Source: Escherichia coli
GTDB lineage: Bacteria > Pseudomonadota > Gammaproteobacteria > Enterobacterales > Enterobacteriaceae
DNA: 64,000 nt
NCBI RefSeq assembly: GCF_001677475.2
Contig: NZ_CP015229.1
Strand: one strand, 5' to 3'
Positions 25,003 to 32,062 of this stretch are shown in pieces (position 1 is the stretch's first letter; every line of letters begins with the position of its first letter). The position numbers and the translations under genes were made by a program. The notes under the pieces were generated by a model. It did not search any database, was not told the DNA's origin, and saw only the letters and a program-made list of their open reading frames with translations.

Positions 25003-25515
25003 GATGACCCGATAGGACTGCGGGGTGGATTAAATCTCTATCAATATGCGCCGAATCCGTTGAGCTATATTGATCCTCTTGGCCTTTGTAAATTAAGGGG
25101 AAGTAATGGGCGCTTCAGAAGTGCTCAGAATATTCAGGAAGAAATAGGCGGACTACCTAATTTTTCAGGGAAGACTCCAGGGCAAATACGACAAACTTTG
25201 CGTAATCGAGTTTATTCGTCGGTACAAGCGCATAGTGGTGGAGAGGTCTGGACAAAAGCATTACCTGACGGAAATACTGTTGCTGTGAGAATTGACCCGG
25301 CAAATCCTCGCTCACCTTCACATTATGCTGATGCTGTGCCTCATGCTCATATTGAAACAGTTCCAACGTCCAGTGTTTCTAATGGGAATTATCGCCCACG
25401 AGACGTGACTGGCAGGCATACTGCCACTGGTGGGATTTCTGACCGAGGAACGAATCCGAATCATAATGCTGATGTTCACATTCCAATGTCTCCGGGACGA
25501 TTCCCATATAATTAA
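25003..25515 (+). CDS. orphan Rhs C-terminal toxin cassette A (starts at the DPIGL core tail; no ATG, in-frame TTG at 25060)
   Basis: In-frame [28 protein letters not shown] followed by a unique about 140-aa tail; frame opens after a stop at about 24982. Confidence 0.65.
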   Translation, partial: DDPIGLRGGLNLYQYAPNPLSYIDPLGLCKLRGSNGRFRSAQNIQEEIGGLPNFSGKTPGQIRQTLRNRVYSSVQAHSGGEVWTKALPDGNTVAVRIDPANPRSPSHYADAVPHAHIETVPTSSVSNGNYRPRDVTGRHTATGGISDRGTNPNHNADVHIPMSPGRFPYN

Positions 25516-25526
25516 TGTGAGGTTTT

Positions 25527-25790
25527 ATGAATATCCGAAATCAATATAATGAAGCCTTAAATAAATTAGAAGTTGATGTTAATGATGGTTTAAGAGATTT
25601 AATAAACATATATTGTGTAGCTATTGATTCTTTTGAAAATGATATCGTTGACTCGATTGCTTTATACGTGATTGATATGGGAAATAAAGATACTTGTCGA
25701 TATCTACAAGAAATATTATCAGAGAATGAAGATCCTTATTTAGTAAAAGAATTTAATGCATGGATGAAAGAAATTAAGAAAAAATATTAA
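25527..25790 (+). CDS. putative immunity protein for orphan toxin A (87 aa)
   Basis: AT-rich small ORF immediately after the toxin; followed by the cassette terminator. Confidence 0.65.
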   Translation: MNIRNQYNEALNKLEVDVNDGLRDLINIYCVAIDSFENDIVDSIALYVIDMGNKDTCRYLQEILSENEDPYLVKEFNAWMKEIKKKY

Positions 25791-25793
25791 AAT

Positions 25794-25832
25794 AAAAGCC
25801 GGGACGGTTATTAAATCTTCCCGGCTTTTTTA
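25794..25832. terminator. intrinsic terminator closing cassette A
   Basis: AAAAGCCGGGacggttattaaatcTTCCCGGCTTTTTTATT. Confidence 0.7.
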
Positions 25833-25836
25833 TTAC

Positions 25837-26070
25837 TTAACTTTCGTTCAGCACACTAAACATCCCGTCACGCATTCCCTTAACCGCCTGTTTAACCAGA
25901 TAAAGTTCCCTGCGCAGTTCCTGTACTTCGTTGTTATCCGCAAGCAGGATCAGACATCCTTCCGAGATCTTCACGGTGACGCCCGTGCCGATCTCAAATC
26001 CCGCTTCTCTCAGCCATTTTGCGCTGATTTTGATTACCGGCGTGTCGCTGCGGTTGGGCAGATAACCCAC
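25837..26070 (-). CDS. SymE-family protein, copy 2 (77 aa from a GTG; 5' region differs from copy 1)
   Basis: MGYLPNRSDTPVIKISAKWLREAGFEIGTGVTVKISEGCLILLADNNEVQELRRELYLVKQAVKGMRDGMFSVLNES; same fold motif as copy 1. Confidence 0.6.
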   Translation of the reverse strand: MGYLPNRSDTPVIKISAKWLREAGFEIGTGVTVKISEGCLILLADNNEVQELRRELYLVKQAVKGMRDGMFSVLNES

Positions 26071-26376
26071 GGTACAGTGGCGCTGTGTTTTGGAAATGAT
26101 ATTCTTATATTTAATCTGCTGATTAGATAGTAAAATTAACTTCGTGCAGATAGCTTACTTTATCAGGGTGCGGCGGTAGTGTATGAACTATGACGTGATG
26201 GTTTTAGTGATTTATATACGAAAATGACAGTACGATCCGGACTTCGAATAGATTGCGCGATTTGACCCGATAGGGCTGGCGGGGGGATTAAATCTCTATC
26301 AATATGCGCCTAATCCGTTAAGTTATATTGATCCACTTGGATTGTGTCCTAAAACTGACTTTAAATGGGGAAATCC

Positions 26377-27666
26377 CAGGGAAAGATCACGTAATGCTGC
26401 TTTTTTGTACTAAACAATTCGCATTTTATGTTTAAAAATTGAGATATTCCTCATTACATAAAGCTGTTTTTTATTGCTTATACATGATCAAATACTCCTT
26501 ACATAATTAAGGAGAACAAAATGGAACTTAAAAAATTGATGGAACATATTTCTATTATCCCCGATTACAGACAAGCCTGGAAAGTGGAACATAAATTATC
26601 GGATATTCTACTGTTGACTATTTGTGCCGTTATTTCGGGTGCAGAAGGCTGGGAAGATATAGAGGATTTTGGGGAAACACATCTCGATTTTTTGAAGCAA
26701 TATGGTGATTTTGATAATGGTATTCCTGTTCACGATACCATTGCCAGAGTTGTATCCTGTATCAGTCCTGCAAAATTTCACGAGTGCTTTATTAACTGGA
26801 TGCGTGACTGCCATTCTTCAGATGATAAAGACGTCATCGCAATTGATGGAAAAACGCTCCGGCATTCTTATGACAAGAGTCGCCGCAGGGGAGCGATTCA
26901 TGTCATTAGTGCGTTCTCAACAATGCACAGTCTGGTCATCGGACAGATCAGGACGGATGAGAAATCAAATGAAATTACAGCTATCCCTGAACTTCTTAAC
27001 ATGCTGGATATTAAAGGAAAAATCATCACAACTGATGCGATGGGTTGCCAGAAAGATATTGCAGAGAAGATACAAAAACAGGGAGGTGATTATTTATTCG
27101 CTGTAAAAGGAAACCAGGGGCGGCTAAATAAAGCCTTTGAGGAAAAATTCCCACTGAAAGAATTAAATAATCCAGAGCATGACAGTTACGCAATTAGTGA
27201 AAAGAGTCACGGCAGAGAAGAAATCCGTCTTCACATTGTTTGCGATGTCCCTGATGAACTTATTGATTTCACGTTTGAATGGAAAGGACTGAAGAAATTA
27301 TGCGTGGCAGTCTCCTTTCGGTCAATAATAGCAGAACAAAAGAAAGAGCCAGAAATGACGGTCAGATATTATATCAGTTCTGCTGATTTAACCGCAGAGA
27401 AGTTCGCCACAGCAATCCGAAACCACTGGCACGTGGAGAATAAGCTGCACTGGCGTCTGGACGTGGTAATGAATGAAGACGACTGCAAAATAAGAAGAGG
27501 AAACGCCGCAGAATTATTTTCAGGGATACGGCACATCGCTATTAATATTTTAACGAATGATAAGGTATTCAAGGCAGGGTTAAGACGTAAGATGCGAAAA
27601 GCAGCCATGGACAGAAACTATCTCGCGTCAGTCCTTGCGGGGAGCGGGCTTTCGTAATCTTGCCCT
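26377..27666 (+). mobile_element. H-repeat (ISAs1-family) insertion element, copy 1, flanked by a 10-bp target-site duplication (26367..26376 and 27667..27676)
   Basis: Ends CAGGGAAAGATCACG / CGTAATCTTGCCCTG form an imperfect inverted repeat; GGGGAAATCC on both flanks; about 1.29 kb with one transposase ORF; coordinates hand-derived. Confidence 0.75.
26521..27657 (+). CDS. H-repeat-associated (ISAs1-family) transposase, 378 aa
   Basis: [65 protein letters not shown]…; matches the H-rpt protein family (YbfL/YbfD/YhhI-like). Confidence 0.85.
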
Positions 27667-30815: not shown

Positions 30816-30817
30816 TG

Positions 30818-30900
30818 AAAGCCGGGTTTTTGGACTGACCCCATAAAGTTGGACACCCAACTGATTAAGGTGCAGTCCAACATATTCCCGGCTTTTTATT
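30818..30900. terminator. cassette C terminator whose hairpin loop carries a palindromic insert of about 51 bp
   Basis: AAAGCCGGG [tttttGGACTGACCccataaagttggacacccaactgattaaGGTGCAGTCCaacata] TTCCCGGCTTTTTATT; arms identical to the other cassette terminators. Confidence 0.55.
30830..30880. repeat. miniature inverted-repeat insert (MITE-like) inside the terminator loop
   Basis: Terminal inverted repeats TTGGACTGACC / GGTGCAGTCCAA; resembles the IS150-like terminal repeats at 35621 and 37052. Confidence 0.45.
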
Positions 30901-30902
30901 AT

Positions 30903-31136
30903 TTAACTCTCGTTCAGTACACTAAATATCCCGTCACGCATACCCTTAACCACCTGTTTAACCTGATAAAGTTCCCTGCGCAGTTCCTGTACTTCGTTGT
31001 TATCTGCAAGCAGGATCTGGCAGCCTTCCGAGATCTTCACGGTAACGCCCGTGCCGATCTCAAATCCCGCTTCTCTCAGCCATTTTGCGCTGATTTTGAT
31101 TACCGGCGTGTCGCTGCGGTTGGGCAGATAACCCAC
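30903..31136 (-). CDS. SymE-family protein, copy 4 (77 aa)
   Basis: MGYLPNRSDTPVIKISAKWLREAGFEIGTGVTVKISEGCQILLADNNEVQELRRELYQVKQVVKGMRDGIFSVLNES. Confidence 0.6.
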   Translation of the reverse strand: MGYLPNRSDTPVIKISAKWLREAGFEIGTGVTVKISEGCQILLADNNEVQELRRELYQVKQVVKGMRDGIFSVLNES

Positions 31137-31329
31137 GGTACAGTGGCGCTGTGTTTTGGAAATGATATTTTTGTATTTAACCTGCTGATTAGATAGTAAA
31201 ATAAACTTCGTGCAGATAGCTTACTTTATCAGGGTGTGGCGGTAGCGTATGAACTATGATGCGGTGGTTTCAGGAATGTACGTACAAAATCGATAGTACG
31301 ATCCTCCAATCAGGTAGATTTGCTGCCCT

Positions 31330-31734
31330 GATCCGATAGGGCTAAGAGGCGGGCTGAACCTGTATGCTTATGCGCCTAATCCGCTGAAATATATTGATCC
31401 ACTCGGATTAAAAAAAGAGCTCTGTAATGGAACTACTCGTGTGCGGCATTATACTAATCGTAAAGGTTCAAATGCGATTGCTGAAAGTGGGATAATTAAG
31501 GCGCATGATAACGGTCGTGTATATTTGGAACCTGCGAATAAAAAACCACTCAGTCAAGTAGACATAGAGGCGAAATATCAAATAGGTCGTGGGAAAGGTA
31601 GAGATTATGTGGATACAGATGTATCTAACGAGCAATTAGAGTGGGTAACAAACCCTCGATATCATATAGATGAATTGACTGTGAAAGGTGATATTATTCT
31701 TTCTGAAAATGCAAAAATAACTCGGCGTAAATAA
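31330..31734 (+). CDS. orphan Rhs C-terminal toxin cassette D (starts at the DPIGL core tail; no ATG, in-frame GTG at 31441)
   Basis: In-frame DPIGLRGGLNLYAYAPNPLKYIDPLGLKKELCNGTTRVRHYTNRKGSNAIAESGIIKAHDNGRVYLEP…; frame opens after a stop at about 31315. Confidence 0.65.
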   Translation, partial: DPIGLRGGLNLYAYAPNPLKYIDPLGLKKELCNGTTRVRHYTNRKGSNAIAESGIIKAHDNGRVYLEPANKKPLSQVDIEAKYQIGRGKGRDYVDTDVSNEQLEWVTNPRYHIDELTVKGDIILSENAKITRRK

Positions 31735-31735
31735 T

Positions 31736-32062
31736 ATGAATAAAAACAATGATGTAATTAATATACCCGGAAAGGATGCCCTTTATATTCTAAGTGAGGT
31801 AGAGTACATATTGATATCACTTAAGAATATTGCAAGGTATTATTTCAATGGTATAGAACAGAACGTTATTGATGATAAATTGTTGAATTCTTACTTTAAA
31901 GAAACCACTAAATTTATTGATGATAAAAATATTACACATCGATTGGCTGAAATAAGAAGGGTTATTACTGAAAATTTTAATACTGATCTTGGAGATGATG
32001 ATATGGATGATATTGAGAGAGAAATAGAAAAGATAAAATGTTGGGAGAAGCCGGGTGATTAA
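31736..32062 (+). CDS. putative immunity protein for orphan toxin D (108 aa)
   Basis: AT-rich ORF starting 2 bp after the toxin stop; acidic C-terminus. Confidence 0.65.
   Translation: MNKNNDVINIPGKDALYILSEVEYILISLKNIARYYFNGIEQNVIDDKLLNSYFKETTKFIDDKNITHRLAEIRRVITENFNTDLGDDDMDDIEREIEKIKCWEKPGD

Follow-up and report, generated by a model that had tools for sequence, protein, structure and literature searches.

How a row of truncated Rhs toxin genes comes to lie behind one complete rhs gene, and which activities its toxins carry, is the question raised by positions 25,003 to 32,062 of a 64,000-nucleotide stretch of Escherichia coli contig NZ_CP015229.1 (the whole stretch, hereafter the window). 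Four cassettes, A to D, lie there at the rhsC locus of Escherichia, with kdpFABC and ybfA upstream and ybgA-phr downstream of an rhs gene encoding 1560 amino acids (aa). They are ordinary orphan Rhs tips, a well-described phenomenon, and their toxins fit known enzymatic classes. The array as a whole is probably a set of displaced tips, the latest of which was moved by an integrative element and tip C by homology, with toxins that are PT7-like (A and C), RNase A-like (B) and of the HYD1 type (D). The mechanism of Rhs tip exchange has been an open question since 2009, the accepted model invoking hypothetical circular intermediates and homologous recombination and explicitly noting a missing integrase; the element described here offers a candidate integrase, a candidate function for replicating the circle, a 14-bp target in rhs, and an unexplained conserved structured RNA. 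If true, a mobile element would edit the toxin end of a secreted weapon in frame.

The tail of an Rhs protein is enclosed in a shell of YD repeats, delivered by a type VI secretion system (T6SS) and freed by cleavage at a DPxGL motif. Rhs orphan cassettes by definition begin with a core fragment containing PxxxxDPxGL...DPxGL. Each tip in the array holds the Rhs core's final 27 codons (its autoproteolysis motif, DPxGL...DPxGL), together with a predicted toxin domain and the cognate immunity gene. The 85-nt segment coding for DPIGL...DPLGL is present in five copies in the window (at 20285, 25006, 26264, 30078 and 31330; 67-100% identity), and the head of every tail is matched by the Rhs_assc_core model TIGR03696 far beyond chance (E 6e-9 to 2.5e-7). 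The following features make up the four cassettes, with tail lengths counted after DPLGL and that of B with its insertion sequence (IS) removed:

25003..25515, plus strand: orphan tip A, core end (DPIGL at 25006) and 142-aa tail; no start codon
25527..25790, plus strand: immunity open reading frame (ORF) A, intact, 87 aa; shares 97.7% identity with the ORF after the same tail in strain JNE151685
26264-26376 and 27678-27993, plus strand: orphan tip B, split; 115-aa tail, predicted to be RNase A-like
26377-27667: intact ISAs1/H-repeat element inside tip B (transposase 26521-27657, E 1e-124)
28011..28391, plus strand: immunity ORF B, 126 aa, intact; 92.1% identical to WP_001002164.1
28414-28446: terminator hairpin after immunity ORF B
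28696..30518, plus strand: orphan tip C, 1466 bp of rhs core and 119-aa tail
29986-30092: P2-like region in tip C, with TCGACA-17-TACAAT at 30004-30032 and an in-frame ATG (30066-30068) directly before DPIGL
30531..30815, plus strand: immunity ORF C, intact, 94 aa; shares 97.9% identity with the ORF beside the sole other E. coli copy
31330..31734, plus strand: orphan tip D, core end and 107-aa tail; no in-frame ATG
31736..32062, plus strand: immunity ORF D, 108 aa, intact; 100% identical to WP_001039055.1 (strain FDAARGOS_1286)
32068-32094: hairpin after immunity ORF D, followed by IS fragments only, with no symE

A preliminary description, made from the sequence by eye, had placed four modules with differing tails at these coordinates, and this is confirmed. 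Its statement that each begins at or just before the core tail holds for A, B and D, and not for C, which starts at 28696 with 1466 bp of core. A small AT-rich ORF does follow each tail, at spacings of 11, 17, 12 and 1 bp (A to D), i.e., 1-17 bp instead of the 2-17 bp that had been given, and B, which had been treated as a single unit, is split by the intact ISAs1. That three of the four toxin ORFs lack an ATG is essentially correct: the frames of the orphan tips open merely 12-96 nt 5' of the core end or core fragment, A, B and D have no upstream ATG, none usable is present in A or D, the only one in B is internal and past the predicted catalytic His, and C contains many. None of the four tips can be exported as it stands, because the delivery part is missing in all of them and B is in addition disrupted by the IS. 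The description had also passed over the symE-like genes and the decayed recombinase/primase element that accompany the cassettes.

The naming of the cassettes as orphan Rhs toxin/immunity pairs is borne out by attached copies of two tails at this locus. In E. coli JNE151685, tail A (94.1% aa identity) ends a full-length 1576-aa Rhs and is followed by the same 87-aa ORF and then by a symE gene; it is present in 35 of 5,426 complete E. coli genomes. Excision of ISAs1 together with one copy of its 10-bp target duplication (GGGGAAATCC, at 26367-76 and 27668-77) restores a 142-aa tip B ORF. In E. coli FDAARGOS_1286, a full-length Rhs of 1552 aa at the rhsC locus ends in the B tail, at 95.8% identity to this restored ORF, and has the same 126-aa ORF next to it (WP_001002164.1 is the ORF after the same tail on a full-length Rhs). 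Tail C was found in one of the 5,426 genomes, as an orphan at a different rhs locus, and tail D is 96.3% identical to a 596-aa orphan in FDAARGOS_1286. Both were seen only as orphans in the E. coli loci inspected; full-length proteins with a C-type tail exist in a library of 1.84 billion proteins. The core of tip C is 97.7% identical to positions 18902-20366 of the main gene over its 1466 bp, with an exact match of 305 bp. Each tail is linked with its ORF in other genomes too, and all eight toxin and immunity ORFs are colinear with their relatives, stop-free and 92-100% identical at the aa level. The ratio of non-synonymous to synonymous substitution rates (dN/dS) was 0.04-0.15 for tails A, B and C (small counts; A and B compared with attached tails), and these three tails are not visibly decaying because they have no stops or frameshifts and a low dN/dS. 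Between the D copies of the window and of another locus (L001), the tail (31411-31731) differs by four non-synonymous and one synonymous changes and the immunity gene by none and four, which hints, with counts too small to conclude, that the D toxin and not the D immunity gene is under relaxed constraint.

We propose that the array would have been built by serial insertion of new tips at the rhs 3' end, with older tips pushed downstream. The latest event is seen by comparison with another strain: a circular element integrated within GACCCGATAGGGCT and displaced tip A. Its cargo was the present main tail, immunity gene and symE, and its backbone a helix-turn-helix (HTH) gene, a primase-helicase, a XerC-like recombinase and a 0.9-kb structured region; the element has since decayed in this genome. 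Tip C would have been displaced differently, in an event driven by homology through which 1.47 kb of core became duplicated. The remains of the integrative element occupy 21213-25005, with symE, HTH and primase genes, the gene for the XerC-like recombinase, and a structured, GC-rich non-coding region of 0.9 kb, and the 3.4 kb between the first symE-like gene and tip A have a GC content of 60-72%. The main gene and the element comprise:

16055..20737, plus strand: full-length main rhs, 1560 aa; shares 94-96% identity with its counterpart at this locus in E. coli
20285..20298, plus strand: left copy of the 14-bp repeat GACCCGATAGGGCT, within the DPIGL codons of main rhs; proposed recombination core
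about 20368-20737, plus strand: main tail after DPLGL; no Pfam, NCBIfam or PDB sequence match
20734..21168, plus strand: main-tail immunity ORF, ATG at 20734 (TTG at 20728 according to the ORF finder)
21213-21542, minus strand: symE-like gene no. 1 after the main rhs cassette, 109 aa, full length (NCBIfam SymE, E 4e-11)
21580..24095, plus strand: decayed backbone, mapped onto the intact copies of E. coli CUWW11
to 21764, minus strand: HTH gene remnant
about 21763/4: internal deletion of 2.2 kb, which took out part of the HTH gene along with the greater part of the primase
21782-22861: C-terminal remnant of the primase-helicase
about 23066-24095 (ORFs 22937-23941 and 23613-24095): XerC-like tyrosine recombinase gene, frameshifted (NCBIfam XerC subfamily, E 1.6e-90)
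24096..25005, plus strand: GC-rich (67%) non-coding region, its last bases abutting the D codon of tip A
25006-25019, plus strand: right copy of the 14-bp repeat, at the DPIGL of tip A

Compared with the empty site in JNE151685, in which tail A is still attached, the window carries an insertion of 4,721 bp that reaches from the main tail to the element end and is flanked by GACCCGATAGGGCT / GACCCGATAGGACT, with no target sequence lost. This is the signature of a Campbell-type integration of a circle carrying the present main tail, immunity gene and symE, with tip A displaced. We infer that the insertion was catalysed by the element's own XerC-like recombinase and that the circle was replicated by the primase; symE and the structured region may have a role as well. 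The element is about 92% identical to one found in 62 of the 5,426 complete E. coli genomes, always on the chromosome and at a median of four places in each. At the rhsC locus of E. coli CUWW11, the order is rhs, immunity gene, the element unit twice in tandem, then symE and ybgA, each unit consisting of symE (minus), HTH (minus), a 910-aa primase, xerC, the non-coding region, an orphan tip and its immunity gene. The right end of the element meets the first DPIGL codon at the identical nucleotide in front of three unrelated tails, one in the window and two in CUWW11. An intact xerC gene of 351 aa is present in locus L006.

For a view beyond E. coli, one genome per species was scanned for relatives of the intact XerC, which yielded 53 loci, chiefly in Citrobacter, Photorhabdus and Xenorhabdus. 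For 35 XerC copies the flanking sequence was long enough to look for an Rhs core end; 30 of them are followed by one within 2.5 kb on the same strand (median distance 1,026 bp), and in 22 of these cases nothing beyond the DPxGL region is matched. The primase lies immediately upstream in 27/32 copies, and symE follows 21 of 23 downstream tips. In 13 of the 14 copies examined, which come from three genera, the D codon of DP(I/L)GL follows directly on the conserved end of the backbone (...GTATGACCGCACCGGAACC-N5-CCCTAA/T), and in Pectobacterium the same gene order surrounds a B-type orphan. Tandem arrays with a near-identical backbone and unrelated cargo were found in E. coli CUWW11, X. ehlersii and X. 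japonica; other tandem arrays are exact duplicates of the whole unit. These data are evidence that at least the latest displacement in the window, and many in related genera, involved a compact integrative element targeting the DPxGL codons of rhs, and such an element is a probable driver of tip displacement. Broader statements are more tentative. That displacement in Enterobacterales is driven, at least in part, by an undescribed family of elements of about 7 kb is a possibility to which we give somewhat less than even weight. Each element would bring as cargo a toxin tip devoid of promoter and start codon together with the immunity gene, besides symE, HTH, primase-helicase and XerC-like recombinase genes and a GC-rich structured RNA (or DNA strand) of 0.85 kb; it would insert in rhs at the DPxGL codons, replace the resident toxin domain in frame and move it downstream, and repeated rounds of integration would build the orphan arrays. 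No description of an rhs-targeting recombinase/primase element was found in open-access papers and bioRxiv, and a prior description elsewhere is possible.

Units from these genera also gave some separate observations. In Photorhabdus and Xenorhabdus loci L010, L017, L023, L026, L032 and L034, the whole unit of 7.4-7.5 kb is repeated in tandem at 100% identity. A Photorhabdus contig of 7,780 bp (L011) is exactly one unit with an identical prefix and suffix of 38 bp, which could be a hint of a circle or a collapsed tandem repeat. In the Photorhabdus unit of L017, an ORF of 65 aa lies between the immunity gene and symE (13372-13569, minus strand), and no counterpart of it was noticed in the Escherichia units.

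The non-coding region between xerC and the junction is 0.85-1.0 kb long and has 59-70% GC in loci with 42-63% GC overall. Counterparts of the region in the window are:

L006, 13724-14473
L025, 5655-6614
L017, 10999-11909

Its nucleotide sequence is conserved over nearly the full length among Escherichia, Citrobacter, Photorhabdus and Xenorhabdus (nhmmer, E 1e-17 to 1e-28). An RNAalifold prediction from 20 sequences contained 87 pairs, 28 of them with compensatory changes; 97.1% of the paired cells were filled by pairing bases, compared with 35-48% when partners were slid by one to three columns, and none of 500 shuffles attained the observed values on four of five measures. Because of conserved G-U pairs, the rhs-sense (plus) strand is indicated for the structure. 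No match was found in Rfam, including group II introns and large non-coding RNAs. A "hypothetical protein" of about 160 aa annotated in the region was rejected as its product, being not conserved outside Escherichia and showing indels that are mostly non-multiples of three. The region might act in recombination or replication as an RNA, regulatory or scaffolding, or else form a structured DNA strand at an origin.

Regarding the toxins, tail D matches Pfam Tox-ART-HYD1 (PF15633; E 1.1e-13; residues 38-124 aligned to positions 1-95 of the 97 in the model), carries the RHYT signature, and is predicted to be an ADP-ribosyltransferase of the H-Y-[DE] clade HYD1. Zhang et al. (2012, PMC3482391) report this family from Rhs proteins and from toxins linked to the T6SS, in agreement with the position of tail D on Rhs; immunity of the Imm-My6CBD type is reported for the clade, whereas immunity ORF D matches neither this nor any other Pfam family. 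According to a review, the toxic activity of HYD1-type candidates from Salmonella still awaits confirmation.

Tail B gave no Pfam match at E <= 0.1, RNAse_A_bac included, and none in NCBIfam or PDB sequences; relatives were found in Pectobacterium, Xenorhabdus, Proteus, Cronobacter and Paenibacillus. Its AlphaFold 2 model, built from 26 sequences (mean predicted local distance difference test score (pLDDT) 83; residues 1-25 weak), has an RNase A-like fold. The family-invariant residues H24, R36, T105 and F/Y107 lie within HGQKMKPSQLIDR and RTSFP, and H24-x11-R36 and T105-S-F107-P resemble HVGKTEAELLNR and T276-G-Y278-P of the contact-dependent inhibition (CDI) toxin CdiA-CT(Ykris) in sequence and spacing, with the His in a low-confidence part of the model. 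The Ykris residues (His175, Arg186, Thr276 and Tyr278, in HVGKTEAELLNR and ITGYP) were taken from published mutagenesis primers; mutation of these motifs abolishes RNase activity, and Tyr278 is often Phe in homologues (PMC5435912). Tail B is predicted to be a metal-independent RNase of the bacterial RNase A-like type, and its family would by this model be tied to an RNase A-like CDI toxin. It differs from CdiA-CT(Ykris) (PDB 5e3e; PMC5435912) in that the two share 14% identity and the Pfam model misses B, the former is carried by CdiA and the latter by Rhs, and the immunity proteins are unrelated in sequence.

Tails A and C are distantly related to each other (BLASTP E 8e-6; families by hhalign, 85% probability, E 6e-6). 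The C-family profile retrieved 135 representatives (clustered at 50% identity) at E <= 0.001 among the 1.84 billion proteins, the domain being nearly always C-terminal in polymorphic toxins, on proteins of up to 2,626 aa. An alignment of A and C including the most distant members retains invariant LP, G, R, HxH and HI. The AlphaFold 2 model of tail C (pLDDT 91.6) shows the PT7 fold. The primer-derived PT7 peptides TIRMRID37PPDKVTKYDH47VHLYDEN and KSPDAH73IPYKM provide the D37/H47/H73 motifs, which align, by eye and over short motifs, with VRVD50P...NAH73VH75KYD...TH98IG in C and with VRIDP...PHAHIE...VHIPM in A. PT7(Bc) is an Mg-dependent, EDTA-sensitive endo-DNase with no RNase activity, and its fold was called new by its authors (bioRxiv 10.1101/2021.10.19.465003). 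Its structure (8owu) was not retrieved by phmmer or by three profile searches (A3, A5 and A6) of PDB sequences; profile A3 retrieved only Rhs core ends because these were still inside the profile. On predicted fold and motifs, tails A and C are predicted to be loop-expanded PT7-type metal-dependent DNases, A as a divergent one, and a toxin family that Pfam does not cover would be linked in this way to the PT7 DNase. PT7(Bc) (PDB 8owu) has 76 aa, is fused to LXG and uses type VII secretion, whereas A and C have 119-142 aa, are fused to Rhs, contain long loop insertions and an extra C-terminal segment, and lack a match at the level of hidden Markov models (HMMs).

The tails had been called unrecognisable, with unassigned activities, in the preliminary description, and this can be revised: D belongs to Tox-ART-HYD1, B is RNase A-like and A and C are PT7-like by prediction. 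The Pfam comparison proposed there for all tails and immunity ORFs was informative for D only, the other tails and all immunity ORFs being unmatched. What it had named as a refutation, a match of all four tails and immunity proteins to well-characterised, named families of known activity, is reached only in part: B and A/C are linked to characterised toxins by fold and motifs and not by family HMMs, and the four immunity proteins, together with the main-tail immunity ORF, matched no Pfam or NCBIfam family. The main-tail ORF was also without a match in PDB sequences. For the main tail itself, a likeness of "SYDNRRLDAA" to ParB-like nucleases was considered and received no support from Pfam and PDB searches.

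Several findings weigh against the displacement scheme and the toxin assignments proposed here. The element copy in the window is dead, with its primase deleted and xerC frameshifted; in front of tips B and D lies a 190-bp spacer that contains no backbone; no excised circle or attP was observed; and a single crossover via the 85-bp homology would give the same junction without any recombinase. Across genera, 5 of the 35 XerC copies have no Rhs core end nearby, and the sample was seeded on XerC relatives, because of which it does not give the share of rhs arrays that involve the element. As to the toxins, no biochemically characterised Tox-ART-HYD1 member was found in the literature searched, the low-confidence residues 1-25 of the tail B model include the putative catalytic His, position 50 is D in tail C and H in most members of the C family, and the link of A, B and C to characterised toxins is absent from family HMM and PDB sequence searches. 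It could be asked whether the element is unrelated mobile DNA with a preference for symE/rhs sites, and displacement wholly the work of RecA acting on core-containing circles (Jackson et al. 2009, PMC2935791). Such a course of events would suit tip C and several orphans in other strains, which carry core fragments of variable length, as well as tips B and D with their missing backbone, and exact tandem duplicates of units could stem from unequal crossing-over. We nevertheless regard it as unlikely, given that the junction between backbone end and DPxGL falls on the same nucleotide in nearly all copies from three genera, and in Escherichia before three unrelated tails, that the 14-bp repeat flanks the insertion with no loss of target, and that XerC and core end are associated in most copies with enough flank.

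A related set of questions concerns what the displaced cassettes are for. The preliminary description took all of them as silent cassettes activated by recombination onto the full-length rhs. In Salmonella, fusion of orphan and main rhs genes by recombination was shown experimentally (Koskiniemi et al. 2014, PMC3967940), and a reservoir of this kind, switched on by homologous recombination, is in keeping with the intact toxin ORFs and their low dN/dS and with the long near-identical core of C. For C the idea stands, and tip C alone would be readily re-activated by RecA-dependent recombination with the main gene, although such an exchange, other than between sister copies in an unequal manner, would delete cassettes A and B along with the immunity gene of the main tail. 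For the other three it does not hold: not even an exact 12-mer is common to the main gene and A or D, B has an exact match of just 24 bp (less than 25 bp in each case) and is IS-disrupted, and the common 85-nt segment is just 67-87% identical; as an explanation for all four, a silent reservoir is somewhat doubtful. Expression of the orphans in place, as toxin-antitoxin modules with promoters inside or just upstream of the core end as reported for Salmonella Rhs-CT (main and orphan), appears improbable. Main gene and tip C contain a region 77% identical (80-81/104 nt) to the Salmonella internal promoter P2, with its TCGACA-17-TACAAT and in-frame ATG before DPIGL, and tip C might be expressed internally because it has kept both; A, B and D start exactly at DPIGL, without a P2-like region or usable start codon, and a sigma-70 scan of the region gave 14 promoter-like hits versus 15.3 expected, which does not exceed chance. 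Only the P2-like site and the hairpins after immunity genes were retained from the promoter and terminator scans. It is about an even question whether only the immunity genes matter, as a poly-immunity locus against Rhs toxins of non-kin in which what is left of the toxins is relics undergoing decay. Each of the four immunity ORFs is intact and has a plausible ribosome-binding site, B has kept its immunity gene next to an IS-disrupted toxin, and in D the substitutions are synonymous in the immunity gene and mostly non-synonymous in the tail; tails A, B and C, by contrast, are free of stops and frameshifts and show a low dN/dS. This view is compatible with the displacement scheme rather than exclusive of it, and the four immunity genes probably protect against neighbours that deploy the matching toxins.

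Returning to displaced tips moved by an element, the array shares with described Rhs orphan arrays (Jackson et al. 2009; Poole et al. 2011, PMC3150448; Koskiniemi et al. 2014) the starts at the core end, each with a differing tail and immunity gene, the position downstream of a full-length rhs of the same clade, the mostly start-less genes and the tails exchangeable between strains and positions; unlike those, three of the four tips here have no extra core and start at the identical nucleotide. Recombinase-associated poly-immunity loci and integron-like arrays also have a tyrosine recombinase beside toxin/immunity arrays grown at one site (XerC/D genes adjoin some polyimmunity loci; Zhang et al. 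2012). In contrast to these, each unit here has its own recombinase, primase-helicase, HTH, symE and structured non-coding region, and the target lies inside the coding sequence of an effector whose toxin domain is swapped in frame. P4-like satellites, satellites resembling phage-inducible chromosomal islands (PICI) and small integrative mobilisable elements are similar in size (about 7 kb), in the tyrosine recombinase, divergent HTH and primase-helicase genes and in forming tandem arrays at a single attachment site. The element differs from P4/PICI satellites in that no packaging or transfer genes were seen, in its attachment site (the rhs DPxGL codons instead of tRNA or intergenic sites), and in a cargo tip that is functional only after integration.

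The immunity genes of the main gene and of A, B and C are each followed by a hairpin and then, on the opposite strand, by a symE-like gene for a type I toxin, and the regions after cassettes A and C are 95% identical up to the next DPIGL. In addition to the copy within the element, these genes are:

25837-26070, minus strand: symE-like gene no. 2 after cassette A; a hairpin at about 25790-25830 is bidirectional, and the spacer to tip B measures 190 bp
28453-28695, minus strand: symE-like gene no. 3 after cassette B, its 5' end cut by the core fragment of tip C
30903-31136, minus strand: symE-like gene no. 4 after cassette C, with a 190-bp spacer to tip D

Compared with NCBIfam PRK13605, the symE-like genes scored E 1e-9 to 4e-11, which is under the curated cut-off; Pfam SymE_toxin is recorded for a Pectobacterium homologue, and RefSeq names the E. 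coli homologues SymE family. An isrA-like antisense RNA was matched at 21343-21471 (plus strand; Rfam 107.5 bits versus a gathering score of 51), more weakly at the other copies, and a weak symR-like match lies at 21537-21611 (plus strand). No LexA boxes were found upstream of the symE-like genes, unlike in K-12 symE. SymE genes near an Rhs-linked toxin have been mentioned for Erwinia. The hairpin after immunity gene C (30816-30895) has about 50 extra nt in its loop compared with those after main, A and B.

The 190-bp spacers before B and D were considered as element backbone and rejected, since only their first 39 bp (symE coding) match; a GTAYGAYCCG box is common to the spacers and the backbone end and is too short to evaluate. 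The 60 nt before B (26204-26263) and D (31270-31329) are alike, resemble the equivalent position in a Pectobacterium locus (L004, 2935-2994), and contain a promoter-like TTGATA/TTAGTG...TA(C/T)GAT together with the box; they could be a promoter or a vestigial attachment arm.

At the other end of the main gene, the N-terminus of the main Rhs has a prePAAR-like motif (AARQGDALLH), and a DcrB-related (DUF1795/Eag-type) chaperone gene just upstream (15812-16033) is truncated to residues 77-150. Because the motif is present and the neighbouring DcrB-related gene is truncated, the main Rhs may be without its cognate chaperone at the rhsC locus. At most 71% of the 7-kb array was found in one place in any complete E. 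coli genome. Downstream, ybgA-phr (33652-35576) is only 90-96% identical to its counterparts in the 5,422 complete E. coli genomes that carry ybgA-phr, and because of this low identity the window probably belongs to an Escherichia lineage other than E. coli sensu stricto (a cryptic clade or sister species). The array is closed before ybgA by a fragment of an IS256-family transposase (32128-32583, minus strand), and a second, degraded ISAs1/H-repeat copy (ybfD-like) lies between the array and ybgA at 32597-33576 (plus strand).

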